Assembly (NCBI GenBank): GCA_937894465.1
Contig: CALCRE010000060.1
Coordinates: 1 to 48,823, forward strand
DNA: 48,823 nucleotides
From: an uncultured Clostridia bacterium
Lineage (GTDB): Bacteria > Bacillota > Clostridia > JAAYHZ01
Direction of reading: 5' to 3'
Shown in pieces: positions 841-34,773 of this stretch; the first letter of the stretch is position 1, and each line of letters starts with the position of its first letter. The position numbers were made by a program, and so were the translations under genes. Under the pieces are notes generated by a model. It did no database searches. It was not told where the DNA came from and was given only the letters and a program-made list of their open reading frames with translations.

Positions 841-893
841 AAAGGGGACGCTTCTCAACCTTTTATGCACAAAAGATTGAGAAACGTCCCCTA
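841..893 (-). repeat. about 50-bp near-perfect palindrome (copy 1 of the GGGGACG-N-TTCTCAA / TTGAGAA-N-CGTCCCC element); likely intrinsic terminator for the SBP gene on the minus strand
   Basis: Left arm GGGGACGCTTCTCAA (844-858) and right arm TTGAGAAACGTCCCC (877-891) pair over 16 bp with one mismatch. The loop flanks CTTTT/AAAAG extend the stem. On the minus strand the stem is followed by TTTTTCTATTT. Confidence 0.7.
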
Positions 894-913
894 TCTTAAT
901 TTTTCCCAACTTA

Positions 914-2755
914 TCATTTAACACTCTTGTAATACTTAAATGTCTTTATTTCATCATTATTCCATATTTTAACCCAATCGTCTAAACCGGCATTATAAAG
1001 TTGCTCTATATATTGCTCCCATTCCGTATCGATGTTTGCTATCTGTCCACCCCAAATTCTACCTGTAAAATCATTTATAACAGAGTTAATTTGTGCGATG
1101 GTCTCTTCACGAAGTAATTTAAATTCTTCATATATCTCAGATGGCATAGTGTATTGACTATACAATTTATCCGGTTGAATCCACAAACTATCACCGAACC
1201 AACCATCCGGACTATATACTTCCCAGTACTTTATGAATTGTGTATAGAATGCATCGTAATTAAAATATGCATTCAAATCAGACATAAAATTCAAGTTGCC
1301 GAATTGTCCGAACATTGTTGTTCCTTTTCCGGCATATTTCGGTGGAATCTTTGTGGCATCCGTGAAGATAATGGGACTGTCCAAAGGTTCTGAATGCCAA
1401 GTATAATGCACTCCTTCTATTCCCCATTTATATCGCATCCAATTCTCACCGAAGTAAGCATATTCAACCATTTGGAATATCCTTGCCAGTTTTTCATCCG
1501 GAACATCACCTACCAAATACATCATCGTGCTCCAGTTAAAAGGTTGATGTGGTCGATAATTGCCGTTTTCACCGGCAACGGGTGTTACAACGAATGTAGC
1601 ATCCGGTTCAACACCGTTCAGAATAGCTGCCGGAGGCCATTGATCTCCGTCGTTGTATCCAAGCCCTAATACTCTCGGTGGTCCTAATGTGTCAATAAAT
1701 CCGGTTCTTCCGGTATTCCATATAGCCCTCAATTCCAAATTGTACGCTATTTCTCCAGGTACCCATTTCATATATCCTTTGTCTAGCATCCTCATCAAAA
1801 AGCTTAAATTATCTTTGTATGGTGTATATGCAAAATATGGTACATAGTCGTTCGTCAAAGGATCCTTATAGAAATGGGCTCCGTCTTGGTCGAAACCGAA
1901 CATATTGTATGATATGTACCGATCATATGCGGAATTAGCAAAAGGTGAACCGTATGTATCATCCGCCCCATTACCATCCGGATCATCTTCGGTAAATGCT
2001 CTTAGAATTTCCTCGACTTCACTAATAGTAAACTTTGTAGTTGAAAAATATAACCTATCATTCCATCGTTCAGGGTTCAATGCACTTTCCATAACGACGA
2101 GATTATCAAGTTCATAACCTAAATTCTCCAACCAATCCAATCTCCATATGGGTACCCATCCGGTATGCCTGGACAACGGAGTATACATAGCCAATCCATA
2201 ATATTCATCTTCAGTTCCTTCAACTAAATTAAAACTTAGACCAAGCGGGTCTTCTTGGATTAGTTTATAATAGCTAGGATAGAACTGTTGAATCATTTTT
2301 AACGGCACTGTTCTGCCTAATCCATTGTCAAACATGTATTTCCCGGTGGTGTAATAAAAGCCGTAATCAGGAACATCACCGGCAGCAAGCATCATTTGAA
2401 CTTGCTGCATCTCTGATGAGCTTACAAGAATATTCCACATTCTGATATCAACATTAAATTTCTCTTCTAGCTCTACTTCATCCCATCTTCCATCCTCATA
2501 TAAGTGAGATGAATATGTGCCTACCAACCAATTAATTGTCATTTTCTCAGCAAAGGGATTCTCGATTTTCGTTGTAGTCTCTGGTTGAGTCGTAACTGCT
2601 GTTGTAGTAACTGCTTTTGTTGTGTCGGCTTTTGTTGTTTGGCTTTGTGCCACTGAACCGGTAGTTACACTCTCGTTAACTTCTCTTCCGGAAGAGCATG
2701 CGACCAAAGAAAAGAGAAGTATCAACGATACGAGGATTGAAATAATTCTTAACAT
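914..2755 (-). CDS. large extracellular solute-binding lipoprotein (family-1 SBP, LplA/YtcQ-like), orphan (no adjacent permease genes)
   Basis: Signal peptide with lipobox LVAC followed by a Thr-rich linker (TTKADTTKAVTTTAVTTQPETTT). At 613 aa it matches the large sugar SBPs of Firmicutes. RBS GGGAGGAATAGT precedes the ATG. Confidence 0.75.
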   Translation of the reverse strand: MLRIISILVSLILLFSLVACSSGREVNESVTTGSVAQSQTTKADTTKAVTTTAVTTQPETTTKIENPFAEKMTINWLVGTYSSHLYEDGRWDEVELEEKFNVDIRMWNILVSSSEMQQVQMMLAAGDVPDYGFYYTTGKYMFDNGLGRTVPLKMIQQFYPSYYKLIQEDPLGLSFNLVEGTEDEYYGLAMYTPLSRHTGWVPIWRLDWLENLGYELDNLVVMESALNPERWNDRLYFSTTKFTISEVEEILRAFTEDDPDGNGADDTYGSPFANSAYDRYISYNMFGFDQDGAHFYKDPLTNDYVPYFAYTPYKDNLSFLMRMLDKGYMKWVPGEIAYNLELRAIWNTGRTGFIDTLGPPRVLGLGYNDGDQWPPAAILNGVEPDATFVVTPVAGENGNYRPHQPFNWSTMMYLVGDVPDEKLARIFQMVEYAYFGENWMRYKWGIEGVHYTWHSEPLDSPIIFTDATKIPPKYAGKGTTMFGQFGNLNFMSDLNAYFNYDAFYTQFIKYWEVYSPDGWFGDSLWIQPDKLYSQYTMPSEIYEEFKLLREETIAQINSVINDFTGRIWGGQIANIDTEWEQYIEQLYNAGLDDWVKIWNNDEIKTFKYYKSVK

Positions 2756-2899
2756 ACTATTCCTCCCATATCTTTTTTATCATTTTACATCATTGGTTAA
2801 TTTAAGTAAATAGGGTTATTTGTCCTATCTTAAGATAAATATCTTTTTTTAAATAATCATTTGTTCTTAATCTGTTATTGAGATTGTTCTCGAATTATA

Positions 2900-2952
2900 A
2901 AAGGGGACACATCTCAACTTTTCATATGGAAAAAGTTGAGATGCGTCCCCTT
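2900..2952 (-). repeat. about 50-bp palindrome (copy 2 of the same element); terminator-like on the minus strand downstream of the Zn-ribbon gene
   Basis: Arms GGGGACACATCTCAAC (2903-2918) and GTTGAGATGCGTCCCC (2935-2950) flank a central CATATG. On the minus strand the stem is followed by TTTTATAATT. Confidence 0.7.
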
Positions 2953-2954
2953 TC

Positions 2955-3518
2955 TTACACAACCTTTTTCCCCAATCTTTTTGCTAATTCCATTATGCCG
3001 CTATCAATAACTTCGCTTATAATAAATTGTCGTCTGGCTTCATCTTTAGGATTGTAGAAATTCCTATCTTTGAATTCATAGATTTGGTCAGCATATGCGA
3101 CAGCAATACAGAAATAATTTTCAGTTTCGAGCCATACATTTTGCATCATTTTGTTAATCTCTATGAGTATTGAAGTGGGATCATTAAAATTCCAAGTTTC
3201 CAGATTCACCTTATTAAATTTTGCATGGGTCATAACACCGTCCGCCATAGCATAAACTGCTTGCTTCTTTGATATTGTCAGGTACTTTACTTCCTGTTCT
3301 GTGAAAAAACGTGTCGTATAAATTTCACTTGGATTAAAAAAGTATCCGTCGCCAAATTCATCCGTATGATCAAATGAAAATTCGTCCATAGGTAGTTTTA
3401 CACAGCACTCTGCGCCACATTTTTGACAATAAAAGAATGCACCTAAGTCATCCACAAAAACATTCACTTTTTTATGAAAGTGACCGCAGTCACGACATTC
3501 TTGTTCAATGGTATACAT
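2955..3518 (-). CDS. hypothetical protein with N-terminal CxxC...CxxC zinc ribbon
   Basis: ORF 2955-3524. The likely true start is the ATG at 3516-3518 (MYTIEQECRDCGHF...), with AAAGGAGC 7 nt upstream. Two CxxC pairs sit in the first 45 aa. No recognisable enzymatic motifs. Confidence 0.6.
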   Translation of the reverse strand: MYTIEQECRDCGHFHKKVNVFVDDLGAFFYCQKCGAECCVKLPMDEFSFDHTDEFGDGYFFNPSEIYTTRFFTEQEVKYLTISKKQAVYAMADGVMTHAKFNKVNLETWNFNDPTSILIEINKMMQNVWLETENYFCIAVAYADQIYEFKDRNFYNPKDEARRQFIISEVIDSGIMELAKRLGKKVV

Positions 3519-3601
3519 AAGCAAAGCTCCTTTTATTTATTATCTATTTATATTCCGAAGGAGAACAATATTGTAATCCTCGACAAAAAGAAATTGCTCT
3601 G

Positions 3602-3640
3602 TATTGAAAAAGACTATTTAAACCAAATAGCCTTTTTTAT
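3602..3640. terminator. hairpin AAAAAGACTATTT-AAACC-AAATAGCCTTTTT, probable relic terminator of the truncated SBP paralog
   Basis: 13-bp stem with one mismatch, flanked by T/A runs. It lies just downstream (on the minus strand) of the SBP 3' fragment. Confidence 0.4.
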
Positions 3641-3655
3641 CAATAGCTCATTACT

Positions 3656-3770
3656 CTATACTTTATAATACTCAAATATTTTTATTTCATCGCTATTACA
3701 GAATTCAACCCAATCGCTAAGACCCACTATAAAGTTGTTCGATGTATTGCTATAATTCCGTATTTATATT
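3656..3770 (-). pseudogene. 3'-terminal fragment of a paralogous solute-binding lipoprotein gene (about 33 codons plus stop)
   Basis: 3661-3770 aligns at about 75-80% nt identity with 926-1035, the 3' end of the intact SBP gene. The minus-strand frame reads ...IVGLSDWVEFCNSDEIKIFEYYKV* against the intact ...NAGLDDWVKIWNNDEIKTFKYYKSVK*. Similarity ends abruptly near 3770. Confidence 0.65.
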
Positions 3771-3936
3771 AGAAATTATTTGCTTCTTCGGTAATCCTCG
3801 GTATGATATTGTTTTTAACATCTATATTTGTTACAGTAATATTAAAATACGAAAATCAAATTTTAAATTTCCTACTATTCAATGTTTATTATCTAAAAAG
3901 AAAAGTATGAAATTTATAATTGCAAAGGAGTAGGGT

Positions 3937-5745
3937 ATGAAATATCAGGAATTAGGTTATCCTTGCAGGAACTTCTGTGTCATGGCATCGGAGACTTTTT
4001 TAGACCCACTGGACAATCGGCGTAAATTTGCAATATCCAGTTTTGTCGCAAGCGGTACCGGGATCATTGTTATTATTGATATTGAATCCGGGCAAGGTGA
4101 AAGAATCGAACTGCCAAAAGATGAAGGCGCTTGGGCTTTGTATTGTTGGAACAATGAAAAGCTATTAATCGGAACCTGTTCAAGATACGGTTTTCTTCAT
4201 TGTTTGGATCTTAAGACAAGAACATGGTCGCCGTCATTAAGAGATGAAAAAGAAACCTATATTTGGAATTTGGTTGAAGGTTCCGACGGAAAAATCTATG
4301 GAGGAACTTATCCCGGAGGCGTTTTGCTTCGGTACGATCCTGTGGGACACAAACTCGAGAATATGGGTAGAATGTCACCTGATGAAAAAAACAACTACAC
4401 CCGACCTTTATATAACGGGGTTGACGGCAGAATATTTTTAACATCCGGATATAACAGCACCCATATGGTTTCATGGGATATCGAAAAGGAAAAATATATG
4501 AAGTTCGGACACGACGGCTGTATGGTCAAAGAAGCCAATCAACACTTTGTATGCGGTATCAATGAAAAGACCAAGGAATTAACTTTTTATCATCCTTATA
4601 CTCTTGAGCAAATTGAAGATGCCGTTCAATATGAATCCATTGATTTGACATGTATAAAGAATCCAGCCATAAAAGAATATTTGAAATCCTTCAAATTGAC
4701 CAGAGAACATGGAGGTCCTAATGTACGAAAACCAAAATGGGATGACGGTACAGTAAAATGCGGCACAGCAGGTCAAAGCTACTATATAGAGCAACCGGAT
4801 GGATCTCGCCAATACAAACGAATTCCCGTAGAAGCTCCCCCCACTGCCATTTTAGGTCTTGCCTATGACGGTAAAGGAAAGATTTGGGGATCCAGCGGGT
4901 TCGGTCAAACTATTTTTTCATACGATACACAAACCGGAGAATATTTTAATACCATAGAAGTGGCCAATGCCGGTGGTGAAGTATATGGTATTTGCCCTGT
5001 AGAAGATCGACTATATCTCACCAGTTATTGCGGAGGAGAACATACGGTATATTATCCGAACATGCCATGGAACAAAGGAGAAAATCCAAAAACCATTGAA
5101 GAGTTGCGTCCTCGATATATTCGACCACATAGTAAAAGTGTGATCGGTGCCGATGGTTATGTGTGGACAGGTTGGTGGGCAGATTATGGTACTTACGGCG
5201 GTGCAATCAGTAAAATTGATGTACAAACAGATCAAGTCACCATTTATGAAAGTCCCGTACCGGATCAAGGTATCGAATCCATTGTCGCCGGAACAAATGG
5301 TATTATATTTTCTACAACCGGACACGGAAACGGCCTTCCGAGCAGAAATATTCCTTTGTGGCTAGTAAAGATGAATTATACGGGAGAAACCTTATGGAAA
5401 AAAGAATATGACGTCAAATATGGAATCGGACCGATGGCTATAGTCGGTGATTATTTATTTGTAAGACTAGGAAGTGAATTTGCAGTGTTTGATACGGTTG
5501 ATATGAGTCAAGTCACAACCCTTACATATCCGATTACAAACAAAGGTCGTCCTTTGACCGGACTACTAGCATATAATCATGAGACTTTGGTGGTATTTCA
5601 TTGTCAAGAAGCCTTGTTTGTGAAGGTTCCTGAGTTTACGATCTCAAAAAAGGTTGAAACAGGCAGTGATATTCATTATGCAATCACAGGTGACCATCAA
5701 CAGATTTATTTTGCAAAAGGATCCTTGCTGTGTAAGTTAGGATAA
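3937..5745 (+). CDS. cytoplasmic beta-propeller repeat protein (Reg_prop/NHL-like repeats), function unknown
   Basis: 602 aa with no signal peptide. Repeated DG-K/R-I-Y/W-xxT-xxGG-xL-xYD modules (for example DGKIYGGTYPGGVLLRYDP, KGKIWGSSGFGQTIFSYDTQT, DGYVWTGWW). RBS AAGGAG 6 nt upstream. Confidence 0.65.
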   Translation: MKYQELGYPCRNFCVMASETFLDPLDNRRKFAISSFVASGTGIIVIIDIESGQGERIELPKDEGAWALYCWNNEKLLIGTCSRYGFLHCLDLKTRTWSPSLRDEKETYIWNLVEGSDGKIYGGTYPGGVLLRYDPVGHKLENMGRMSPDEKNNYTRPLYNGVDGRIFLTSGYNSTHMVSWDIEKEKYMKFGHDGCMVKEANQHFVCGINEKTKELTFYHPYTLEQIEDAVQYESIDLTCIKNPAIKEYLKSFKLTREHGGPNVRKPKWDDGTVKCGTAGQSYYIEQPDGSRQYKRIPVEAPPTAILGLAYDGKGKIWGSSGFGQTIFSYDTQTGEYFNTIEVANAGGEVYGICPVEDRLYLTSYCGGEHTVYYPNMPWNKGENPKTIEELRPRYIRPHSKSVIGADGYVWTGWWADYGTYGGAISKIDVQTDQVTIYESPVPDQGIESIVAGTNGIIFSTTGHGNGLPSRNIPLWLVKMNYTGETLWKKEYDVKYGIGPMAIVGDYLFVRLGSEFAVFDTVDMSQVTTLTYPITNKGRPLTGLLAYNHETLVVFHCQEALFVKVPEFTISKKVETGSDIHYAITGDHQQIYFAKGSLLCKLG

Positions 5746-5767
5746 TCTTTTTTATAGAAAAACATTT

Positions 5768-7166: not shown

Positions 7167-7176
7167 AAACCACCTT

Positions 7177-8561: not shown

Positions 8562-9281
8562 TCAAATTCTAAAGCCGATTGTTAACTGCATTTTAAAGAT
8601 TGTTCTAAAAGTGTTATCACTTGAAGAGATCACTGTCTTATCATTTTCAACATCTTCTGTTTCACATTCTAATGCCGCTGCCTGCAATTTTTGTTCTTCC
8701 ACATTGATCATATGTGTTAAGACCGCTTCCGTCAAGGCTATGGATTCTGTTGATTCAGGAACGTTATTACTCAATAATGACAATTCTGCATAAATGAATC
8801 CGCAAAAAACCGATGTGATAACATTCGTCTCGGTTTTTAATACCATTTTTATAGGATCTGTCCATAGTTTTTTATTCATCTTAAAACAGATACTGATCCG
8901 ATCCTGGATATAGTTACCGCCAATAACATCATCACCGTATGGTGTATCATCAAACGACAAAGAAATACATTCGGAACGGGGCTGCGTTTCCATAAAAGCA
9001 CAGAGGTCCGAAAACACCATGGTGACCGGGGCATTCCCAATATCTTCTTGATCCATATAGGTTATTTTCATTGAACAATCGGTGATATCCAAATCCGTTA
9101 TATCCGTGCAGAAATTCATGTGTATATGACCGATTTCCCTTTTGTTAGAATTCATATGAGAGCGTTGAATTGTATACTGGAATTCCGAAGTTTTTTCTCT
9201 GTTTGAAAGAACAGGTTTCAAAACAGATATGTTCCAACCGTTTTCCGCATCAACTTCGCTGCAAACTTTATTCTTTGACAT
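8562..9281 (-). CDS. hypothetical protein (239 aa), no recognisable family
   Basis: ORF track gives 8562-9347. A better start is the ATG at 9279-9281 (MSKNKVCSEV...), with AAGGAGGTG 6 nt upstream. Confidence 0.6.
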   Translation of the reverse strand: MSKNKVCSEVDAENGWNISVLKPVLSNREKTSEFQYTIQRSHMNSNKREIGHIHMNFCTDITDLDITDCSMKITYMDQEDIGNAPVTMVFSDLCAFMETQPRSECISLSFDDTPYGDDVIGGNYIQDRISICFKMNKKLWTDPIKMVLKTETNVITSVFCGFIYAELSLLSNNVPESTESIALTEAVLTHMINVEEQKLQAAALECETEDVENDKTVISSSDNTFRTIFKMQLTIGFRI

Positions 9282-9379: not shown

Positions 9380-9408
9380 TTGAGAACCGTCCCCGCTCAT
9401 ATTATAAT
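9380..9408 (+). promoter_or_regulatory. sigma-A-type promoter for the ABC exporter operon; its -35 is supplied by copy 3 of the TTGAGAACCGTCCCC element
   Basis: TTGAGA (9380-9385), a 17-bp spacer, then TATAAT (9403-9408). The ATG at 9441 is preceded by GAGGGA. Confidence 0.6.
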
Positions 9409-9440: not shown

Positions 9441-11159
9441 ATGAGTATATATGGTAAGTATTTTAGAAAATACAAATATCCGTTCTTGGTAGCGGTTTTG
9501 TGTGTTGCTTTAGAAGGGGTATGCGATTTACTCGGCCCTACTTTGATGTCCAACATCATCAACAAGGGAATAGAGAAACAAATGATGTCCGAAGTTTATC
9601 GTTGGGGTGGATTGATGTTGCTAGTGACTCTATTTGGTGCATTTTTCGCAGTGACCAGGAATATTTTCGCCAGCAAAACCTCTCAAAGAATGGGAGCTGA
9701 TTTACGATATGATTTGTTCAAAAAAATCATTAGTTTTTCAGAAGAAGGATCTGATAAGATAGAAAGCGGATCATTAATTACACGAATGACCAATGATACC
9801 GCTCAAGTCATTCAATTTGTGAACGGGATCATGCGTATTTTTTTAAAAGCTCCGATCACCTGTATAGGAAGTATAATCTTCGCGAGTATTCTAAATTTTC
9901 GCCTAAGTTTAATCATTTATGGAGTAGTGGCGGCGGTAGCCGTTCTCATCACCATCAGCATGAAGCTAAGTTACCCTAGGTTTTCCAAGCTACAAGCAGC
10001 AAGGGATAAAATGAATATTGTTGTGCAAGAATATCTTATTGGTGTTCGAGTAGTAAAAGCTTTCGGTACATATAAAGAAGAGACGGAAAAGTTTCATGAT
10101 ACGAATGACTCATTAATGAAAAGAAGTGTATCATCTCAAATGGTTATCACTCTTATTTCTCCCATTATTAATCTAACCGTAGGTATAGGAACTGTCGCAG
10201 TCGTTTATCTCGGTAGTATTCTGTTTCCAATGCAACTTGCCGAACCCGGAGATATCACCGCATTTATTATTTATATGGCACAAATTCTTTCCTCTTTGAT
10301 TATGATCACCAATGTATTCAATGTATTCGTTCGAACCAAGGCTTCCACTGCACGTATTAAAGAAGTATTGGACAGTTCCGAAGACTTTTCAGAAACAGGC
10401 GAAAAGAAAAAAATTACCGGTGACATTGAGTTTCGAAATGTTACTTTTGCCTACCCCGCTGGTAGCGGTGTCCCGGCTGTTAGAAACCTTTCTTTAGTGA
10501 TTGAGCACGGCCAAAACCTTGCCATCATCGGACCGACCGGAAGTGGGAAATCTACCGTTGCATGGCTTTTATTACGGTTTTACGATGTGGACAACGGTCA
10601 GATTTTGATCAACGGTCAAGATATCCGTCAATTGAATGTAAAATCTTTACGAAATCAAATTGCCTTGGTACCGCAAAACCCAATGCTCTTTTCCGGAACC
10701 ATTTCCGAGAACATCAAATGGGGAGATAAACAAGCAACAAACGACTCCATCGATCAAGTTGTAAAAAAGGCTGAAGCCGGTTTCATTTATAACATGCCAA
10801 ACCAATACGACAGTATACTAGGAAGTTCCGGTGTCAATATTTCGGGTGGGCAAAAGCAACGGATCTCCATTGCACGGGGATTAATCAAAGACTCCCCCAT
10901 TCTAATTTTAGATGATGCAACAAGCGCTCTTGATGCCGTCACCGAATCCAAAGTCCGACAAAACTTAAAATCAGATCAAATGGAACGAACGGTTATCACA
11001 ATCACACAGCGTATCGGTACAGCCATGTCATCTGATAAGATCCTTGTAATGGATAACGGCAATAGTGTCGGTTTCGGAACCCACGATGAACTGATGAAAG
11101 AATGCCCGATGTATAAAGATATTTACAAATTACAAATAGAAGGCAGCAAGGAGGCGTGA
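9441..11159 (+). CDS. ABC transporter ATP-binding/permease (type I exporter half-transporter), subunit 1 of a heterodimer
   Basis: N-terminal 6-TMS domain plus NBD with Walker A GPTGSGKST, signature ISGGQKQRISIARGL and Walker B ILILDDATSALD. Confidence 0.9.
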   Translation: MSIYGKYFRKYKYPFLVAVLCVALEGVCDLLGPTLMSNIINKGIEKQMMSEVYRWGGLMLLVTLFGAFFAVTRNIFASKTSQRMGADLRYDLFKKIISFSEEGSDKIESGSLITRMTNDTAQVIQFVNGIMRIFLKAPITCIGSIIFASILNFRLSLIIYGVVAAVAVLITISMKLSYPRFSKLQAARDKMNIVVQEYLIGVRVVKAFGTYKEETEKFHDTNDSLMKRSVSSQMVITLISPIINLTVGIGTVAVVYLGSILFPMQLAEPGDITAFIIYMAQILSSLIMITNVFNVFVRTKASTARIKEVLDSSEDFSETGEKKKITGDIEFRNVTFAYPAGSGVPAVRNLSLVIEHGQNLAIIGPTGSGKSTVAWLLLRFYDVDNGQILINGQDIRQLNVKSLRNQIALVPQNPMLFSGTISENIKWGDKQATNDSIDQVVKKAEAGFIYNMPNQYDSILGSSGVNISGGQKQRISIARGLIKDSPILILDDATSALDAVTESKVRQNLKSDQMERTVITITQRIGTAMSSDKILVMDNGNSVGFGTHDELMKECPMYKDIYKLQIEGSKEA

Positions 11160-11160
11160 T

Positions 11161-13020
11161 ATGGCCCAACAACAACCAAGACAAGATACAAAGGTTCCGT
11201 CATTAAGCAACAGGCCGGCTGGTGGAGGTGCAGGTCGTTTTGCACCGAATGCAAAACCTAAAAACGCAAAGGGAACACTTTTAAGAATTATAAAGATATA
11301 CATGCAATGGGGTAAAACTATATTAGTCGCTATGTTGCTTACGGCCATTGCATCCGGTATTGCCGTAAGTATACCCTACTTTACCGGTAAAACATTTAAT
11401 ACCTTTGATTTACAAACACGTACTGTAAATATTGATGACCTTCTTCGCTTTTTATTAATCCTATTGTCACTTCATGTGTGTTCTTTGACCATCTCATGGA
11501 TCAACGGGATCATTATGCTAAAGGTGTCTCAGAAATTAGTGTTCACGATACGTAATGAAGTGTTTTCCAAAATGCAAAAGCTTCCCTTACAGTTTTATGA
11601 TACCCGCTCACATGGAGATACCATGAGTAGAATCACCAATGACGTGGATAATATTAGCTCCACCATCGCACAAACCACAACTCAATTAGTGTCCAGTATA
11701 CTGACTTTAGCTGGATCATTGATTGTGATGATTTCATTGAGTATTCCTCTCACACTGATTGTTTTATTGGTAATTCCCCTTGTTGCATTGTTAACGAAAT
11801 CCATCGCATCGAAAAGCCGTGCATATTTTAGAGCGCAGTCTAAAAGTTTGGGGGAATTAAACGGTGTAATTGAAGAGAATATCCAAGGACTAAAGATGGT
11901 AAAAGCTTTTGGAAAGCAACAAGATATGCTTAATCAATTTAACGGCATTAACGAACAATTATATGACAACAGTAAAAAAGCTATGATATGGTCCGGATAT
12001 ATGATGCCATTAATGAATGTAATCAATAATTTTGTATTTGCTTTGGTTTCCATCATTGGCGGTATATTGACCATAGAGCAAGGCTTAGTGATTGGCACGG
12101 TAGTTAGCTTTTTAAGTTATTCCAAGCAATTTGCTTTTCCTTTAAATGCTATTGCCGGTATGTTTAACACCATACAATCTGCTTTAGCAGGTGCCGAACG
12201 TGTTTTTGAGTTGTTCGACAGTAAAGAAGAACCTTCTGATCTTCAAGATGCCATTGATATAAAGAACCCAAAAGGGTACGTAGTATTTGATGATGTAAGC
12301 TTTTCCTATAAAATCAATCCTGTCTTAAAAAATATATCATTCCATGTCAATGCAGGTGAGGTGATTGCATTAGTGGGTGAAACCGGTGCAGGTAAGACAA
12401 CCGTAGTGAACTTGTTGACACGATTTTATGATGCGGATAGCGGAGTGATACATATAGACGGAATCCCTATTCATGATATAAAAAGAAACAGTTTGAGAAA
12501 ATGTTTCTCGGTTGTTTTACAAGACACATCACTATTTAGTGGAACGATTTTGGAGAACATCCGCTATTCTCAGCCTGATGCGACAGAACAACAGGTGATC
12601 AAAGCAGCTAAAATAGCGCATGCACATGATTTTATCGACAAGCTTCCTAATGGATATCATACCATGGTTTCCGGATCTACCGACAACTTAAGCCAAGGAC
12701 AGCGCCAGCTCATATCCATCGCACGAGCAGTTTTAAGTGAAAGTCCTATATTGATCTTAGATGAAGCCACCAGCAGTGTTGATACCAAAACCGAGAAGGA
12801 TATCCAAAAAGCTTTGTTAGGATTGATGAAAAATCGTACCAGCTTCCTTATCGCCCACCGATTATCCACCATCAGAGATGCAAATCACATTATGGTGATC
12901 GGTAATGGCTCCATATTAGAAAGAGGAAACCATAAAACCTTGATGCAACATAAAGGTCATTATTATGAAATGGTGACAAGTCAAACTCAGATTAGGGACA
13001 GTTCTCAACAAATTTTATAA
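11161..13020 (+). CDS. ABC transporter ATP-binding/permease, subunit 2 of a heterodimeric exporter, with a basic low-complexity N-terminal extension
   Basis: Walker A GETGAGKTT, signature LSQGQRQLISIARAV, Walker B ILILDEATSSVD. Its start overlaps the upstream stop (TGATATG), indicating translational coupling. Confidence 0.9.
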   Translation: MAQQQPRQDTKVPSLSNRPAGGGAGRFAPNAKPKNAKGTLLRIIKIYMQWGKTILVAMLLTAIASGIAVSIPYFTGKTFNTFDLQTRTVNIDDLLRFLLILLSLHVCSLTISWINGIIMLKVSQKLVFTIRNEVFSKMQKLPLQFYDTRSHGDTMSRITNDVDNISSTIAQTTTQLVSSILTLAGSLIVMISLSIPLTLIVLLVIPLVALLTKSIASKSRAYFRAQSKSLGELNGVIEENIQGLKMVKAFGKQQDMLNQFNGINEQLYDNSKKAMIWSGYMMPLMNVINNFVFALVSIIGGILTIEQGLVIGTVVSFLSYSKQFAFPLNAIAGMFNTIQSALAGAERVFELFDSKEEPSDLQDAIDIKNPKGYVVFDDVSFSYKINPVLKNISFHVNAGEVIALVGETGAGKTTVVNLLTRFYDADSGVIHIDGIPIHDIKRNSLRKCFSVVLQDTSLFSGTILENIRYSQPDATEQQVIKAAKIAHAHDFIDKLPNGYHTMVSGSTDNLSQGQRQLISIARAVLSESPILILDEATSSVDTKTEKDIQKALLGLMKNRTSFLIAHRLSTIRDANHIMVIGNGSILERGNHKTLMQHKGHYYEMVTSQTQIRDSSQQIL

Positions 13021-13033: not shown

Positions 13034-13066
13034 GAAAACCGGTTTTACTTTGATAAAACCGGTTTC
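13034..13066. terminator. bidirectional intrinsic terminator
   Basis: GAAAACCGGTTTT-actttgat-AAAACCGGTTTC, a 12-bp stem between convergent genes. Confidence 0.65.
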
Positions 13067-16189: not shown

Positions 16190-16204
16190 TTGAGAACCGT
16201 CCCC
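16190..16204 (+). repeat. copy 4 of the TTGAGAACCGTCCCC motif (half-site, directly after the aaRS stop)
   Basis: Exact 15-mer. On the minus strand it reads GGGGACGGTTCTCAAC followed by TTTTTG. Confidence 0.8.
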
Positions 16205-16205: not shown

Positions 16206-17531
16206 TTATGGTTCTAGTCTTTCGGTATCTCTCGGGAATAAGGTTGCCTGCCGGACATTCGGCAAGTCAAGTAATCTTGCAGTGAATCGTTCCAAGCCCA
16301 ACCCTAATCCCCCATGGGGCGGTAGACCATATTGATGAGCCATCAAATAACTTTTAAAAAGATCGACATTCATGCCTCTGTTTTTCATTTTCTCCACTTG
16401 TTCATCGTAATCATGAATCCTTTGTCCACCGGTGGTAATCTCCAGCCCTCTGAACAAAAGGTCAAAGCTTTCCGTCACATTCGAATTACCGGGTGTTTCC
16501 ATTGCATAAAAAGGTCTTTTAGATGACTTATACCGGGTTACAAAAACAAACTCACTACCGGTTTCTTTTTTAATAAGATCACACAGTAATTTTTCTTCCT
16601 CGGGTTCAAAGTCTTCCATGTCGGTACTGACTCGCTTGTATGTTTTCTCAAGCATACATTTTGCATCTTCAAAATCCACGGCAGGAATCTGATTCACCGT
16701 AGGTATTTTAACCTTGAGCAAATTAAGTTCATATGCATAATGAGCCTGTAGAAAATCCAAAGTCTCAATAAGCATTTTTGTTTCATATGTCATAATTTCC
16801 GTATAGTTCTCAATGAAACCTACTTCAAAGTCCACACTTGTATATTCATTAATATGTCTTGCGGTATGATGCTTCTCTGCTCTGAAAACCGGGGCTATTT
16901 CAAAAACCCTTTCAAAGACGCCCACCATCATTTGTTTGTAAAATTGAGGACTTTGAGCAAGATAAGCTTCCTTACCAAAATAGTCCAGCTTGAAAATATT
17001 GGCACCGCCTTCTGCCCCTGAATATACAATTTTAGGTGTATGGATTTCAGTAAAATTGTTTTCCCCAAAAAACTTTCTAAAGCCGCTACACAAACCTTCT
17101 TGTATTTTGAAAATAGCTCGTTCCCTTTCATTTCTCAATGTAATAGGGCGGTATTGAAGCAATATGTCCAATGATACACCCACTTGCCGGTTGTTAATAA
17201 CAATCGGTGTTTGTTCCACCGGTGCGGAGAGTTTTTTGATACTCTTCATACGAAGTTCACAACCGGTAGAACTCCGCTCTTCCGATATCACAACTGCTGT
17301 CAGCAATACACTCATATTGCACACAAGGTCAGAAAGAGGAAATAAAGAAAATTCTTCACTCCAAACACACTGAACCATATGCCTCTTCGTTTGTAACAAC
17401 ACAAAAGCAAAACCGCTCATTTCCCTAATCTTATAAATCACTCCTTGTAGGGATACCTCTTTACCGATAAAATCAATAAAATGTTCAGCTTCAACCCGAT
17501 TGTTTTCTATATTACCATTTATATAAATCAT
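16206..17531 (-). CDS. class IIb aminoacyl-tRNA synthetase, archaeal-type AspRS (AspRS2)/AsnRS-like
   Basis: N-terminal OB-fold region, motif 2 FRAEKHHTARHINEYTSVDFEVGF, and a C-terminus GGLGLGLERFTARLLDLPNVRQATLFPRDTERLEP typical of type-2 AspRS/AsnRS. 441 aa. Confidence 0.75.
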   Translation of the reverse strand: MIYINGNIENNRVEAEHFIDFIGKEVSLQGVIYKIREMSGFAFVLLQTKRHMVQCVWSEEFSLFPLSDLVCNMSVLLTAVVISEERSSTGCELRMKSIKKLSAPVEQTPIVINNRQVGVSLDILLQYRPITLRNERERAIFKIQEGLCSGFRKFFGENNFTEIHTPKIVYSGAEGGANIFKLDYFGKEAYLAQSPQFYKQMMVGVFERVFEIAPVFRAEKHHTARHINEYTSVDFEVGFIENYTEIMTYETKMLIETLDFLQAHYAYELNLLKVKIPTVNQIPAVDFEDAKCMLEKTYKRVSTDMEDFEPEEEKLLCDLIKKETGSEFVFVTRYKSSKRPFYAMETPGNSNVTESFDLLFRGLEITTGGQRIHDYDEQVEKMKNRGMNVDLFKSYLMAHQYGLPPHGGLGLGLERFTARLLDLPNVRQATLFPRDTERLEP

Positions 17532-22996: not shown

Positions 22997-23011
22997 TTGA
23001 GAACCGTCCCC
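22997..23011 (+). repeat. copy 5 of the TTGAGAACCGTCCCC motif
   Basis: Exact 15-mer, 6 nt downstream of the oxidoreductase stop on the minus strand. It overlaps a small CGGTT-gag-AACCG hairpin. Confidence 0.8.
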
Positions 23012-23016: not shown

Positions 23017-24111
23017 TCACCAAACCACTGATGGGTCTCCGTGGAGATTAGGCAGTCTGTTGGGTATTACCAATGCTCCCCCTTCTTCATATGAAGTGAT
23101 TGCAGCAAAAGTATACTCCAAAGATGCCAATGCATCCCGTCCGGAAGCGCGTATAAATTCTTTGGGTACCTTGTTTGTGATATCTTCTAAAAATGCATGT
23201 AGTCTTGTTGGAAATGTGGAATTGAAATCAGTGATACCAGTATTCATTATCACAGGATCGGGAGCTTTTTCTCCTTTTTTGGGAGATTCCCAAAATGTAA
23301 GCTTTTCCACACAGTTTTCTATACAGAATGTGCCTTTTGTTCCGGCTTGTTCATAACTCCACCAGCCGCCCAAACCGAACATGGCGTCTCCCCTTTGTGA
23401 TAACAGATATCCCACACTGCCGTTTTCAAAACGAACGTGAATGCTGTTAATGGAAAGCATCAAATCATCTTTACTTTTTCTTACTCCCGGCTTATTTAAA
23501 AATGCTTGAACATGGGTGATGTCCCCGCAAAAATATCGCATAACACTAAAAGGATGCGCCAGGAAAGCCTTTACATGGGAATAAGGTCTTTGCCATCTTG
23601 GGCTGGCTATTCCGCCATAAGTGTCTTCTCCGCCGTTAAACCCGACTTTGTGAAGACAATACACCGGTTCGCCCACTTTGCCTTCATTCATATATTGCTT
23701 TGCCTTGTCTGCAGGTTGGGTGAAAAAATGATTCAGATTGCATCCGAGATAAACATCTTTCTTTGCAGCATATTTCACCATTTCTCTAGCTTCTAGAATA
23801 TCATTGGATATTGGTTTTTCGACCAAGACATTCTTGCCTGCATCCAACGCTTGCATCACCGGTTCGTAATGCCAGCTTCCGTTTTCATATCCGCTGGTGG
23901 TCACATCAATGATATCCAACTCCGGCATTGCCGCCAACATGTCCTTTAAACTATAAAAAGCTTTTACACCGAATTTCAAAGCAGCTTTGTCCGCCTTTTC
24001 CTTAACGATGTCACAAACAGCTACAAGCTCAGCCAAGGGGTCCTTTTGATAACATGTAGCATGAGTATTTCCTATACCCCCCATACCGACAATTCCTATT
24101 TTTAAAGCCAT
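23017..24111 (-). CDS. Gfo/Idh/MocA family NAD(P)-dependent oxidoreductase
   Basis: N-terminal Rossmann motif KIGIVGMGGIGNTHA and the EKP motif. 364 aa. Confidence 0.85.
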   Translation of the reverse strand: MALKIGIVGMGGIGNTHATCYQKDPLAELVAVCDIVKEKADKAALKFGVKAFYSLKDMLAAMPELDIIDVTTSGYENGSWHYEPVMQALDAGKNVLVEKPISNDILEAREMVKYAAKKDVYLGCNLNHFFTQPADKAKQYMNEGKVGEPVYCLHKVGFNGGEDTYGGIASPRWQRPYSHVKAFLAHPFSVMRYFCGDITHVQAFLNKPGVRKSKDDLMLSINSIHVRFENGSVGYLLSQRGDAMFGLGGWWSYEQAGTKGTFCIENCVEKLTFWESPKKGEKAPDPVIMNTGITDFNSTFPTRLHAFLEDITNKVPKEFIRASGRDALASLEYTFAAITSYEEGGALVIPNRLPNLHGDPSVVW

Positions 24112-29106: not shown

Positions 29107-29133
29107 GATAAATTTTTAAAATTGGAGGTCATT

Positions 29134-29973: not shown

Positions 29974-30005
29974 TTCGAACAAATAAATAAATAATAAATC
30001 TAATT

Positions 30006-30034
30006 AGCCGGAACCATATGTTTTCCGGCTTTTT
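30006..30034. terminator. bidirectional intrinsic terminator
   Basis: AGCCGGAA-ccatatgtt-TTCCGGCT followed by TTTTAATATT. Confidence 0.7.
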
Positions 30035-30470: not shown

Positions 30471-30473
30471 CTG

Positions 30474-30914
30474 TTACTTAATCACCTTCTCCATTTCAAA
30501 ATGAGGAACGGTCACTTCCATAAATTCTTCACCGATAATTTTGTAATCCATTCTTTTGTAAAAGGACAACGCTGTCTTTCTAGCATGTAAAACAATTCTG
30601 CCGTATCCAAGTTCCTTTGCCACTGTTTCTGCAAAGGCAACCATCCGGGTTCCGAACCCTTTACCTTGGTGTTCTTCTTCCACTGCAACCTGTCTCATCT
30701 TGACCGTATGCAAACTTAAGGGGGTTAATACCAATACCCCGATGATAAGCATGTTATAGAAAACACCGATATGGATATCGTTGATTTCCTTGTTTAAATT
30801 CTCTTGGAATAAATTCAATCCCAAAGGTCTTCGAAGAATTTTATCCCTTAACAACAAGGATTGTCGGTAATCTTCCGACTGATATTTTATGATTCTTATA
30901 TCCACTTTTATCAT
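30474..30914 (-). CDS. GNAT family N-acetyltransferase
   Basis: 146 aa with motif HQGKGFGTRMVAFAE. Confidence 0.8.
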   Translation of the reverse strand: MIKVDIRIIKYQSEDYRQSLLLRDKILRRPLGLNLFQENLNKEINDIHIGVFYNMLIIGVLVLTPLSLHTVKMRQVAVEEEHQGKGFGTRMVAFAETVAKELGYGRIVLHARKTALSFYKRMDYKIIGEEFMEVTVPHFEMEKVIK

Positions 30915-31105
30915 TTTTGTTGCTTCATCTTTTTAAGCATGGGAACAATACCGCTATAAATGAAACACATGGATATGAATAATAGGAAAATCAACAGCGC
31001 ACCCCATGTATTGTTCATTTCCGCTTTCACAAGAATCACTGCGTATGCGATAATACCTACAACACCGATTAATATCCTGATCAATTCTTTTTTGTTCTCT
31101 TTCAA
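30911..31105 (-). CDS. small two-TM membrane protein (64 aa)
   Basis: Two hydrophobic helices. Its stop overlaps the downstream GNAT start (ATGA). Confidence 0.5.
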   Translation of the reverse strand: MKENKKELIRILIGVVGIIAYAVILVKAEMNNTWGALLIFLLFISMCFIYSGIVPMLKKMKQQK

Positions 31106-31118
31106 AGTAAAACCTCCG

Positions 31119-31724
31119 TTAACCGTCTATTAAGTATCCATTTTCAACCGCTTCTTGCACAATCATTTTTATATATTCCCACAACAACTTGGAGCCTTCC
31201 TGTATATGGGCATTTTTAGTCAAGACTTGTTCTTTTGTCACATTCAACCGCTTCCATTGCAAGCCTTCCGTCATATAGTTATGATAAATAGGCATAAATC
31301 GATCCAAAGCGTTGGCATATTTGGACTCGTTGCTCCTTCTCTCGTCAAACTCAATCCAAAGGGCAATGAATTGTTTCTTTTGATCGGAAGGCAACAAGCC
31401 GAATATTCTCTCCGCGGCATTTCTCTCTTGTTCCGCTCTTAATTTCGGATCAACCTTCGCATAAGCAAACACATCCCCCGCATCAATTTCCACGATGTCA
31501 TGCAATACGACCATTTGAAAAACCTTAGTTATGTCCAACTCATCAAAATCGGTGTATTCCGATAAAACAAGCGCTGCAACCGCCATATGCCACGAATGCT
31601 CTGCATCGTTTTCCCTACGGGATTGATCCATCAAAACCGTGTTGCGGATTATCTGCTTCGCTTTATCAATTTCAGCTAAAAACCCCAATTGGCTTTCCAA
31701 TCTTTCTAATTTTTTTGCATCCAA
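31119..31724 (-). CDS. HD domain phosphohydrolase (YfbR/5'-deoxynucleotidase-like)
   Basis: H...HD motif: HSWHMAVAALVL...LHDIVEIDAGD. Confidence 0.8.
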   Translation of the reverse strand: MDAKKLERLESQLGFLAEIDKAKQIIRNTVLMDQSRRENDAEHSWHMAVAALVLSEYTDFDELDITKVFQMVVLHDIVEIDAGDVFAYAKVDPKLRAEQERNAAERIFGLLPSDQKKQFIALWIEFDERRSNESKYANALDRFMPIYHNYMTEGLQWKRLNVTKEQVLTKNAHIQEGSKLLWEYIKMIVQEAVENGYLIDG

Positions 31725-31752
31725 TTCATATCACCGTTTCTCTTAATGCATT

Positions 31753-32229
31753 TTATATATTTTTAATACTACAACAAATTTCATCATTCTTCAACAGGAT
31801 GATTCCATAGGAGGCCTGAATAGAATTTCTTGAAACACGACCGATTCTACCGGGATTCATCATCCATATACCTCCTTCGTTTTCCAAATACGGTATATGA
31901 GTATGTCCGAAAAGAATCATGTCGGCATTAACGCTCTCTCCTTTGTAAAAGATTCGAGACAATCCGAATTGTACATTATACCGGTCTCCATGGGTGATAT
32001 AGATTCGCTTTTTGTTTTTGATGATTGTTTTTTCATAAGGATAACATATGACAGTATCGGTGTTGCCCGGCACCATCTCCATGGGTATTTCCGGAAAGTC
32101 TTTTTGCAAGTGTTCTGCATCCGTGATATGATCTCCTAAGTGAATCACCAATTCAGGTCTTTCTTTTTTGACAACGAAAGTCATTGTCTCGTTATCCCTA
32201 TGAGAATCAGCAAAAACAACGATTTTCAA
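31753..32229 (-). CDS. YfcE/MJ0936-type metallophosphoesterase
   Basis: DSHRD, GDHI, GNTD, HGD and GHTH motifs. TTG start overlapping the secA-like stop (TTTGA), with AGGAGGAAG 5 nt upstream. Confidence 0.8.
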   Translation of the reverse strand: MKIVVFADSHRDNETMTFVVKKERPELVIHLGDHITDAEHLQKDFPEIPMEMVPGNTDTVICYPYEKTIIKNKKRIYITHGDRYNVQFGLSRIFYKGESVNADMILFGHTHIPYLENEGGIWMMNPGRIGRVSRNSIQASYGIILLKNDEICCSIKNI

Positions 32230-34631
32230 AACGTCTTCCTCCTATTATTAGCCATCATTCGGCTTTTTCGTGTGAAGAATTCATAGGCTGCCAAAGCCAT
32301 ATACAATAAAATATTCATAGATAAAAAAGCAGGATTTGCCAATAACATGTTAATCCCAAGTTGCTCCGGCCGATCATCCACCAGATAAGTCCATGTGGAA
32401 GACGGTCCAATCAGACCTTCTTTTTTAAGGTCAATGCCCTTTTCGGTCAGGTTTATTGTTTGCAAGGAATTACATACACCGGATTCAATATCTTGCACCA
32501 GTTCATCATAAGCTTGAATCGCCATCTTATGAAATTCGTCCAAAGGTGTTTTACCGGCCATATTCGTAAGATGGATTCCGTTTCTTATATAGTTGATATA
32601 CGATAGATAATCCATCCAACAATGATTGATATGATAAAGCCAAATCATTCTTTCAGCTTCCTCTAAAACATGCTCCGGAATGAATGAACTGTATTTTTTA
32701 TATAGTTCAGGAAGTTTGCTTTTTAAAAGTCCCGGACTCCATCCGAACAAGATCTTCATCCTTTTAGTGTACATCATCCTTCTTTGCTGATCGAGAATGA
32801 ATGTATACCTGTATAATGTCCTTCTTATATCATGGTTTTGACCTTCAATGATCCTTTGTGCATTTCGCACTCTCTTAACAATGATCTTATGTTCCAAAGG
32901 AGCGTCTTGTTTCTCCGGGTAGAATCGAACCGGTATCAATTCCTTTAATTGATATCGGACCATCAAATTATCTTCAAGGCTTGTAAAAAAGCAGCTCACA
33001 CCCGGATCTCCTTGCCTTCCGGCTCTTCCCTTGAGTTGGTTGTCAATCCTTATACTCTCATGTCGATTGGTTCCTATAACATAGAGTCCTCCCAACGATT
33101 TGATTTTTTCCCGATCAATCCCTTCTTCTCTACCCAACTTGATATCAGTTCCTCTTCCCGCCATATTGGTGGATACCGTCACAGCAAAAGAAAGTCCCGC
33201 CTTTGCAATGATACCGGCTTCCAACTCATCATTTTTTGCATTCAACACATTGCATGGAATCCCCGCATTGTAAAGATCCTTTGCCAACCTTTCGGATTCT
33301 TGAACACTGGCAGTCCCGATTAAAATAGGTTGTCCAGTTTTATGCACCTTGCTTATTTCTTCGGTCAAAGCCTTAAATTTTGCATCCTTATGAGTGAATA
33401 TCTTGTCCGGATAATCTATACGAATACACGGCATATTTGTTGGAATCTCCAATACATCCAATCCATAAAAATCAAGAAACTGAGTTTTAGCTGTCGAAGC
33501 CGTTCCGGTCATACCACTGACTTTTTGGTAATTTACAATATAATCTTTCATGGTCATGGAATACAATATTCGTCCGTTTGGTTGGTCTTGAATGCCTTCC
33601 TTTGCTTCTATGGCTGCTTGAAGTCCGTCGGGCCATTGACGGTTATCCGCTATTCTACCTGTGAATTCATCTACAAGTTCGATTTTCCCTCCCCGGACAA
33701 TGTAATCGATGTCTCTTTTCAACAATCCATTGGCATGCAAGGCATTATTTACCCCTGCTAACAAATACCAATTCTTCTGATCATAGAGATTTTCGCAATC
33801 CAACATTTTTTCCACATATTCAGTTCCTTCTTCGGTCAACATAATATTCCGAGCGTATTCATCTGTTTGATAATGGATATCTCTAGTCAATTCCTTGATC
33901 ACCGAATCAATGAATTGTTCATCGCGAATACTTTCATCCGGCACATTACCCGCAAGCACCATTGGGATTCCGGCTTCATCGAGCAAGATGGAATCCACTT
34001 CGTCAATAATAGCATAATGGAAACCTCTTTGAACCAATTGTTGAGGATTGCTTGCAGTAAAGGATCTTAAATGATCAAATCCGGCTTCTTTGGCTGTAGC
34101 GTAGGTTATATCCTTGCAGTAAGCGGTTTTCTTTTCTTTCCAATCCATTCCTTCTTGGATATACCCTGCGGTCAGCCCTAAGAATTCGAATACCGGTCCC
34201 ATCCATTCAGCATCTCTTTTTGCCAAGTAATCGTTAAATGTAAGGATATGTACACCTTTTCCCGTCAAAGCGTTTAAATATGCAGGACAAACAGCTGCAA
34301 GAGTTTTTCCCTCTCCGGTCTTCATATCGATAATTAATCCTTCGTGCAACCCGAGCCCCGCCAATAATTGCACATCAAAATGTCTCATTCCCGAAACTCT
34401 TGTGGATGCCTCCCTTACCAAAGCAAATGCCGGTATCAACAAATCATAGAGATTCTTTCCTTTTATTGCATCGGTTTGCAAACTCCTTGAAAGATTTTTC
34501 AGTTTATGATCACTTAAATCCGACAAATTCATTTCATTGATTTGATCTAAGATTTTCAAATACATCTTCGGAATTTTCTTGTATAGAGGATCGTTTTTAT
34601 TGCTCGGACTGAGTTTTTGTTCCCTTTTCAT
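32226..34631 (-). CDS. secA: SecA-family preprotein translocase ATPase, short divergent form lacking a C-terminal zinc finger (SecA2-like)
   Basis: GEGKTLAA, MTGTA, NMAGRGTDIKLG and GRAGRQGDPG are present. The invariant DEARTPLIISG region is changed to DEAGIPMVLAG. 801 aa, ending in a 24-residue hydrophobic stretch plus a basic tail. Confidence 0.8.
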   Translation of the reverse strand: MKREQKLSPSNKNDPLYKKIPKMYLKILDQINEMNLSDLSDHKLKNLSRSLQTDAIKGKNLYDLLIPAFALVREASTRVSGMRHFDVQLLAGLGLHEGLIIDMKTGEGKTLAAVCPAYLNALTGKGVHILTFNDYLAKRDAEWMGPVFEFLGLTAGYIQEGMDWKEKKTAYCKDITYATAKEAGFDHLRSFTASNPQQLVQRGFHYAIIDEVDSILLDEAGIPMVLAGNVPDESIRDEQFIDSVIKELTRDIHYQTDEYARNIMLTEEGTEYVEKMLDCENLYDQKNWYLLAGVNNALHANGLLKRDIDYIVRGGKIELVDEFTGRIADNRQWPDGLQAAIEAKEGIQDQPNGRILYSMTMKDYIVNYQKVSGMTGTASTAKTQFLDFYGLDVLEIPTNMPCIRIDYPDKIFTHKDAKFKALTEEISKVHKTGQPILIGTASVQESERLAKDLYNAGIPCNVLNAKNDELEAGIIAKAGLSFAVTVSTNMAGRGTDIKLGREEGIDREKIKSLGGLYVIGTNRHESIRIDNQLKGRAGRQGDPGVSCFFTSLEDNLMVRYQLKELIPVRFYPEKQDAPLEHKIIVKRVRNAQRIIEGQNHDIRRTLYRYTFILDQQRRMMYTKRMKILFGWSPGLLKSKLPELYKKYSSFIPEHVLEEAERMIWLYHINHCWMDYLSYINYIRNGIHLTNMAGKTPLDEFHKMAIQAYDELVQDIESGVCNSLQTINLTEKGIDLKKEGLIGPSSTWTYLVDDRPEQLGINMLLANPAFLSMNILLYMALAAYEFFTRKSRMMANNRRKTF

Positions 34632-34758
34632 ATTAAAAGAATTGCTCGGTTACATGATAAACATAAACCGCCTTATACCTTCACTTTCTACTGTAGGATG
34701 GTTCAATATTACCTCAATAACCGCTTTCTTGCAATCATATAATTAGTTGAGAATTTAG

Positions 34759-34773
34759 TTGAGAAGCGTCCCC
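34759..34773 (+). repeat. copy 6 of the motif (TTGAGAAGCGTCCCC), preceded by a partial direct repeat AGTTGAGAA
   Basis: 15-mer lying between the NUDIX stop and the secA-like start. Confidence 0.8.

Follow-up and report, generated by a model that had tools for sequence, protein, structure and literature searches.

A dense repeat family in an uncultured Clostridia contig and its probable relation to helix-turn-helix-bearing Y1 transposases

In TIRtrons, a Y1 transposase gene (TIRYT) lies between inverted repeats that share the sequence GGGGWSAS; some of these repeats form dispersed families, found singly, as dimers or in groups, and the published cases come mostly from Proteobacteria and Acidobacteria (S. 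maltophilia, Koribacter) and not from Clostridia (Di Nocera, De Gregorio & Rocco 2013, PMC3733652). Most TIRYTs belong to subclass 2.1 of the TnpA-REP transposases, named for repetitive extragenic palindromic (REP) sequences, and carry C-terminal Bac_DnaA_C, HTH_23 or HTH_28 domains; no REP-like sequences were reported near subclass 2.1 genes (Quentin et al. 2018, PMC6006769). Among REP-associated tyrosine transposases (RAYTs), Group 1 has the widest taxonomic spread, including Clostridia, and moderately repeated flanking 16-mers (Bertels et al. 2017, PMC5581495). Here we describe a 15-nt repeat unit, M (minus-strand reading GGGGACGNTTCTCAA), in a single stretch of DNA, hereafter the window: the complete 48,823-bp contig CALCRE010000060.1 from a metagenome-assembled genome (MAG) of an uncultured "Clostridiales bacterium", with 39% G+C. 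To our knowledge, REP and REPIN-RAYT systems have been studied almost only in Proteobacteria, and the Y1 branch bearing a helix-turn-helix (HTH) domain (TIRYT, subclass 2.1), the second largest, has a DNA partner that is barely described.

Our analysis indicates that the terminal or REP-like repeats of widespread, HTH-bearing Y1 transposases (HUH, IS200-like) probably have M as their conserved core. The window family joins the TIRtron/REPIN-like kind and is not a new kind of element.

The M repeat family in the window and elsewhere

Across the whole window, the sequence TTGAGAWNCGTCCCC matches exactly at 877, 2936, 9380, 16190, 22997 and 34759 on the plus strand and once, at 844-858, on the minus strand, which gives seven exact copies against zero expected and none in 100 dinucleotide-preserving shuffles. 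An earlier note on this DNA had listed the six plus-strand copies and judged their recurrence beyond chance, and both points are borne out, as is its remark that four of the six are preceded by G. Its statement that all copies share one orientation holds for those six and ignores their inverted partners and a plus-oriented unit at 12994. A scan allowing up to 3 mismatches adds two units, 2903-2917 (GGGGACACATCTCAA, 2 mismatches) and the degenerate 12994-13008 (AGGGACAGTTCTCAA), for a total of nine M units in 49 kb, arranged as two inverted doublets (844-891 and 2903-2950) and five singles; relaxed pattern scans of the window recovered no M unit beyond these nine. The 15-mer is strictly conserved among the window units and the flanks are not. 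Except for one that overlaps the 3' end of a gene, the units are intergenic throughout. Over the whole window, an Rfam scan returned no match at gathering score and a tRNA scan found no tRNA.

Doublet 1 joins the plus-oriented unit GGGGACGCTTCTCAA (844-858, the exact match on the minus strand) to the minus-oriented unit GGGGACGTTTCTCAA (877-891, in minus-strand reading) with the GGGG ends outward, and on the minus strand its stem of approximately 20 bp is followed by TTTTTCTATTT. Doublet 2 pairs the plus-oriented variant at 2903-2917 with the pattern match GGGGACGCATCTCAA at 2936-2950 (minus), and the resulting terminator-like hairpin is followed on the minus strand by TTTTATAATT. Each doublet forms 20 base pairs, nine of them G-C, with a T-rich tail on the minus strand, and the predicted folds reach -37.4 kcal/mol (z -11.0) and -40.1 kcal/mol (z -11.9), which agrees with the earlier description of copies 1 and 2 as palindromes. 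The T-runs lie on the sense strand of the upstream gene. Only these two doublets present the anatomy of a Rho-independent terminator (G+C-rich hairpin, U-run, position downstream of a gene), and on their predicted fold they look like putative intrinsic terminators, as had been proposed for them from the stem and the T-run.

The five single units show no significant predicted structure and no terminator anatomy. Four are minus-oriented pattern matches: GGGGACGGTTCTCAA at 9380-9394, in a divergent promoter region; GGGGACGGTTCTCAA at 16190-16204, after aspS (16206-17531, minus); GGGGACGGTTCTCAA at 22997-23011, after a GFO/IDH/MocA oxidoreductase gene (23017-24111, minus) and conserved in the same-species contig L001; and GGGGACGCTTCTCAA at 34759-34773, after a Nudix hydrolase gene (34790-35236, minus). 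The fifth, the degenerate unit at 12994-13008, is co-oriented with the plus-strand gene 11161-13020. The unit at 34759 is directly followed by an 11-mer, TTCTCAACTAA, that is tandemly duplicated (GGGGACGCTTCTCAACTAAATTCTCAACTAAT; 34738-34773, minus strand), and slippage or repair may have left this scar at the inner end of the unit.

Strong stems with T-runs just downstream of genes are what ordinary intrinsic terminators would show, and the two doublets could owe their similar stems to convergence or local duplication, the singles then being chance matches or decayed halves. We regard this as extremely unlikely given that an exact 15-mer occurs seven times where none is expected, that the singles lack a hairpin and two of them are followed by native terminators, that the other terminators in the window use stems unrelated to M, and that the same sequence is found across phyla.

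The M core is indeed not unique to the window contig. The same 12-15 bases, with the consensus GGGGAC[G/A]NTTCT(CAA), written also as GGGGAC[GA]NTTCTCAA, occur in Firmicutes, Bacteroidota, Actinomycetota and bacteria of the candidate phyla radiation, and M recurs as doublets or arrays in many unrelated genomes; this excludes confinement to the window, which the earlier note had said would speak against a dispersed family. The genome scan covered 185,579 species genomes with a 15-mer pattern of 14 specified bases, and most of the rows listed are chance coding matches. Among the matches listed, 28 of 122 loci hold at least two copies of the core GGGACGGTTCT, and these multi-core loci belong to Lachnospiraceae, Oscillospiraceae, Hungateiclostridiaceae, Clostridium, Prevotella, Micropruina (70% G+C) and one genome of Gottesmanbacteria. 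The cores take three recurrent forms: inverted doublets (CCACCGGGGACGGTTCTCGCCGGCGAGAACCGTCCCCGGTGG, for instance, is present five times within 8 kb of Oribacterium sp. NK2B42), direct arrays opposite inverted ones, and a single core within a lineage-specific stem (S-M-S'), with M in the hairpin loop. Stems of at least 6 bp surround the core at 13% of 293 distinct sites, compared with 0.8% when the flanks are permuted. A metagenome scan for the doublet form yielded 51 loci with 31-67% G+C. Adjacent core pairs have GGGG on the outside in 25 cases and on the inside in 2, and both window doublets are of the former type. In viral contigs, which served as a negative control (52 loci), the 15-mer is present only as singletons in coding-like context.

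M cores at Y1 transposase genes

In loci L097 and L115, cores flank a gene for a protein of ~260 aa that contains Pfam Y1_Tnp (E 6e-16 and 2e-17), scores 86.1 and 79.3 bits, respectively, against NCBIfam NF047646 "REP-associated tyrosine transposase" (cut-off 80), and ends in an HTH. Cores directly flank such a Y1+HTH gene in L038 and L104 as well. Searches by tblastn with two Y1+HTH proteins matched 6 of 120 genome loci, 3 of 51 metagenome loci and none of the 52 viral loci. The proteins fall into two length classes, one of ~260 aa with a short HTH and the other of ~310-326 aa with a Bac_DnaA_C-like end, and a profile built from eight of them matches at least 5,724 clusters, many on contigs of ~1 kb.

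The association was also recovered starting from the protein. Four profile matches on long contigs, from Wukongibacter baidiensis, Acetobacterium wieringae, a Ruminococcaceae MAG and a Bacillota MAG, comprise five genes, and all five have S-GGGGACG...-S' ~60-70 nt upstream of the start, adjoining or overlapping a TTGACA -35 box, together with one to three inverted copies just past the stop. Long genes of the DnaA_C type are flanked by GGGGACAGTTCTCAA (L163), GGGGGCAGGTCTCAAC (L130) and GGGGACGGTTCTCAA (L090), with the full ...TCTCAA extension. Overall, 13 of the 14 Y1+HTH genes inspected have M-type cores within ~400 nt, inverted and with GGGG outward, and the exact 15-mer adjoins the gene in L097, L104, L115 and L090. 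The earlier note had proposed a REP- or miniature inverted-repeat transposable element (MITE)-like family, possibly dependent on a RAYT/IS200-like transposase, and had suggested looking for a Y1 gene flanked by copies; the flanked Y1/IS200-like genes of other genomes support that proposal, and the window itself holds none.

The core differs in detail from one enzyme to another. In A. wieringae, two paralogues that are 40% identical and lie 8 kb apart are flanked by GGGGACGGTTCT and GGGGACGTTTCGG, respectively, with further copies of the GGGGACGTTTCGG variant close by, and such paralogue specificity is the pattern expected of enzyme-specific substrates. The variants carried by Y1+HTH proteins include GGGGACGG, GGGGACAG, GGGGACGTTTCGG and GGGGACGGGGTTAT. 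Since inspected Y1+HTH genes are themselves flanked by GGGGACGG, unlike the published GGGGWSAS, the published motif appears too narrow. The enzymes found near M correspond to TIRYT and TnpA-REP subclass 2.1 and are probably Group 1 RAYTs, the last being an equation of our own.

There is a small chance that M is instead the target of these enzymes: the doublets would be pre-existing host palindromes (terminators or protein-binding sites) into which Y1+HTH elements preferentially insert, as IS1397 and ISKpn1 do into REPs, and M would have spread by other means. Insertion at the centre of a doublet would equally leave inverted M flanks with GGGG outward, and the window does contain M units and no transposase. 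Such a target would not account for core variants that are paralogue-specific within one genome, for an upstream core held in distant lineages at a constant ~60-70 nt from the start and overlapping the -35 box of the gene, or for lineage-specific stems common to both flanks of a gene; in addition, no second set of element ends lies inside the M flanks.

A DDE-type MITE (Correia/NEMIS- or RUP-like), moved in trans by a classical insertion sequence (IS) that shares its terminal inverted repeats, would resemble the doublets in that each of these is, in form, a pair of 15-21-bp inverted repeats with a short spacer between them. It is nonetheless very unlikely, because no direct repeats indicative of target-site duplication flank either doublet (AAGATA/TTTTTC and AAGAAA/TTTTAT), a length of 48 bp is far below that of typical MITEs, and the only gene recurrently bounded by the core encodes a Y1/HUH enzyme and not a DDE transposase. 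Of the family memberships floated in the earlier note, Correia fails on the same grounds, with neither a target-site duplication nor a DDE transposase, and classical REP/BIME (bacterial interspersed mosaic element) fails for want of a GTAG tag and of a palindromic unit. M as the conserved core of Y1+HTH terminal repeats remains the reading that we favour.

Several core-bearing loci have structures of their own. In L027 (7503-7889), an open reading frame (ORF) with only the C-terminal HTH (LSTRQIERLTGISRSLV) of a Y1+HTH protein lies between facing core arrays and, judged from its sequence, looks like a decayed transposase gene still bounded by repeats. Compact palindromic core arrays occur in high-G+C genomes (67-70%; L093 1-230 and L030 130-260): L093 has four direct and five inverted copies at ~20-nt spacing beside the end of a ribosomal-protein operon, and Micropruina (L030) has a similar array a short way upstream of a promoter. 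We rejected the interpretation of the L027, L093 and L030 arrays as CRISPRs, iterons or parS sites because they are inverted blocks around a decayed or intact Y1+HTH gene. In Prevotella sp. tf2-5 (L081, 1299-7794), with ten cores in 8 kb, and in L034 (392 and 4729), the core is the tip of a 22-nt inverted repeat, GGGGACGGTTCTGAMTGATCCA. Where two such repeats are paired, at a separation of 140-166 bp, a promoter-like TAAATATTTTGTA lies between them, ~250 nt ahead of small lipoprotein-like genes; such a pair could be a MITE that carries a promoter, or else an invertible promoter.

Placement of the units and a proposed mechanism

Five window elements lie immediately downstream of minus-strand genes, at distances from the stop of 22 nt (877; gene 914-2755), 4 nt (2936; gene 2955-3518), 1 nt (16190), 5 nt (22997) and 16 nt (34759). 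All five occupy the first 22 nt of intergenic regions that are 115-199 nt long, a clustering with p ~1.5e-4 under uniform placement, as a rough estimate. The earlier note was right in placing five copies near the 3' ends of minus-strand genes, and its range of 6-25 nt is replaced by the distances given here; a reading of the 9380 unit as a 3'-end copy does not hold, as it lies between divergent genes. The unit at 16190 sits between the aspS stop and the native terminator. Doublet 1 separates the tandem minus-strand genes 914-2755 and <=758; gene calls around doublets 1 and 2 were taken from the same-species contig L182. By the gene calls on a same-species contig, a minus-strand Amidohydro_2 gene starts at 758 and runs off the left end of the window, and a mechanically listed plus-strand ORF at 488-760, beside doublet 1, is probably spurious.

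The unit at 9380 is located 46 nt upstream of an ABC transporter gene that starts at 9441; it precedes the minus-strand gene at 8562 by 33 nt when counted from the start of the longest ORF (9347) and by 99 nt when counted from the called start (9281). On the plus strand, 9380-9408 reads TTGAGA-17 nt-TATAAT, the best promoter-like match in the first 20 kb (11/12), 30 nt upstream of the ABC exporter operon 9441-13020, and the repeat may thus have donated a -35 box to that operon. A general role for the M family as a promoter element was rejected because a properly spaced -10 box accompanies the 9380 unit alone. At the other end of the operon, the second ABC exporter gene ends in eight codons (RDSSQQIL*) supplied by the degenerate unit (12994-13020), ahead of a native terminator at 13035-13066; here the repeat is turned into C-terminal coding sequence.

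Similar placement is seen in other genomes. In loci below 50% G+C, 145 of the 182 M-core sites scored are intergenic, and single intergenic units are often 1-28 nt from a stop, with the upstream gene co-oriented in 23 cases and anti-oriented in 8. Chi, KOPS/SRS-type polar sequences and uptake sequences, considered for the strand bias, were rejected because the motif is 15 nt long, intergenic only, cross-phylum and tied to a transposase gene.

Strict conservation of the 15-mer between unconserved flanks, the stop-proximal clustering, the orientation bias and the display of M in the loop of a variable-stem hairpin in many lineages would also suit an immobile binding site for a host regulator (an operator) or for an RNA-binding protein (an RNA site), one that marks a regulon or serves as a processing signal in 3' untranslated regions. 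We give this explanation a slim chance. The genes beside the window units are functionally unrelated (aspS, the GFO/IDH/MocA oxidoreductase, the Nudix hydrolase, the ABC exporter and hypotheticals), M is either missing or differently placed at orthologous aspS flanks, arrays and doublets show a specific link with a transposase gene, and the unit matches no Rfam family.

The aspS locus allows the comparison at orthologous sites for which the earlier note had called, and flanks without the unit or with it elsewhere are present among relatives. The closest relative available, at 80% aspartyl-tRNA synthetase (AspRS) identity, carries GGGGACATTTCTCAAC in the aspS 3' flank, but past the terminator, and the relatives at 78% and 71% AspRS identity have no unit at the aspS 3' flank and none within 11 and 21 kb of surroundings, respectively. 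These sequence comparisons are evidence that units at this flank come and go, an insertion-like behaviour. Within the species, contigs L001, L002, L129, L182 and L183 are 99.5-100% identical to the window over aligned stretches and keep every unit that they overlap, and the aspS unit is identical in L001, L002 and L183. The AspRS of the window is identical to HBN83302.1, and GCA_003504795.1 contains same-species contigs with 99.8-100% identity over their overlaps with the window. Relative to window 2807-2837, contig L182 (8493-8966) is longer by ~445 bases, NN and part of a membrane-protein ORF among them, at a point ~65 nt from doublet 2; this is probably a scaffolding artefact and not a real polymorphism.

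Several observations weigh against M as a transposase-linked core in this organism. Neither tblastn nor profile hidden Markov models detected a Y1 transposase gene or remnant in the window, and a cognate Y1+HTH enzyme in the organism is assumed. No transposition event, within-species empty site or excision product was seen in the same-species contigs. For the single units, neither a partner remnant nor a hairpin is present, and mobilisation of a bare 15-mer is hard to explain. The strand bias of M is confounded with gene orientation. Finally, seven of the nine window units read GGGGACGN, with G and not A at position 7, and so depart from the published GGGGWSAS; the units at 2903 (GGGGACAC) and 12994 (AGGGACAG) agree with it in full or nearly so.

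If M is nevertheless the core of Y1+HTH repeats, the enzyme would recognise and bind it, cleave single-stranded DNA by analogy with IS200/IS605 and RAYT transposases, and copy gene-less units around the chromosome. The window doublets would then be minimal non-autonomous elements, consisting of two ends without a gene in the manner of REPINs, and the five single units would be single ends. Purifying selection would confine the surviving units to the strip where they are tolerated, from a stop codon to the native terminator, and their shared orientation might result from strand-specific (single-strand) insertion, selection, or both. In an AT-rich lineage, doublets flanked by A- or T-runs could be co-opted as intrinsic terminators, as the 9380 unit could provide its -35-like TTGAGA to the ABC transporter operon. 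At transposase genes, enzyme bound at the upstream core may autoregulate its own promoter.

A bolder extension, which we put forward tentatively and consider rather less likely than not to hold in full, is that GGGGACGGTTCT(CAA), 12-15 nt long, is a cross-phylum recognition element of Y1+HTH enzymes, displayed in a hairpin loop on a lineage-specific stem (like Rep/HUH nick sites and unlike REP stems). In some Clostridia the system would have reached a density of about one unit per 5 kb as a domesticated supplier of terminators and promoter parts, with strand- and position-specific insertion right after stops. If true, this would be a distinct REPIN-like system of Gram-positive and other non-proteobacterial genomes with an unusually long universal recognition sequence.

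Comparison with known systems

In the searchable literature, the longer core GGGGACGGTTCT(CAA) common to several phyla, its frequent display in hairpin loops and a dense family in uncultured Clostridiales appear not to have been described; when the core and its variants were searched as text strings, the only matches were to eukaryotic primers. The window shows a dense M-type repeat family in uncultured Clostridia, with gene-less doublets located where terminators are needed. The core offers a simple annotation marker, and a defined oligonucleotide for testing binding and cutting by Y1+HTH enzymes. Many of the Y1+HTH genes among the profile matches P0001-P0120 are on contigs of only ~1-2.5 kb; M flanks would explain this class of assembly breaks, and because flanking repeats would break short-read assemblies, the family is likely under-represented in MAGs.

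Among more distant systems, the inverted pairs of Neisseria DNA uptake sequences (DUS) and Haemophilus uptake signal sequences (USS), as well as Correia elements, resemble M in being short sequences, single or in inverted pairs, that act as terminators downstream of genes. Uptake sequences, however, are species-specific and tied to competence, whereas M is cross-phylum and tied to a Y1 gene, and Correia elements have TA duplications and a DDE-type origin, whereas M shows no target-site duplication. With IS200/IS605 elements (IS608, ISDra2), the M-associated system would share HUH/Y1 chemistry, the lack of target-site duplication, recognition of single-stranded DNA hairpins and strand-biased insertion. 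The ends of those elements, in contrast, are not mutual inverted repeats and have no long cross-phylum block, and their TnpB partner is absent with M.

The REP/BIME and REPIN-RAYT systems of E. coli and Pseudomonas, reportedly the subject of work by Nunvar (2010), Bertels and Rainey (2011) and Ton-Hoang (2012), are closer. In both these systems and M, short extragenic repeats lie downstream of genes, inverted doublets probably constitute the mobile unit, a Y1 transposase present in single copy has its own repeats on either side, and repeats are co-opted as terminators or mRNA stabilisers. Unlike classical REPs, M has no GTAG (or unpaired CGTC) tag, its CGTC lying inside the paired or loop block, and the unit itself is not a palindrome with a conserved stem, such that singles do not fold. 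In many lineages the M block forms the loop on a lineage-specific stem, and the associated enzyme has an extra HTH domain. The proteins beside M, with a Y1_Tnp core and either a short HTH or a long Bac_DnaA_C-like C-terminus, resemble those of subclass 2.1, although here hairpin-forming S-M-S' units flank the genes.

The closest likeness is to TIRtrons. In both, inverted repeats beginning with GGGG bound a Y1 gene (for M, as seen in other genomes), the repeats are dispersed (five singles and two dimers in the 48.8 kb of the window, dimers and arrays in other taxa), and the logic of gene-less doublets is the same. M differs from the TIRtron repeats in that most units read GGGGACGN and in a conserved block that is longer, at 12-15 nt (GGGGACGGTTCT(CAA)), and common to several phyla.

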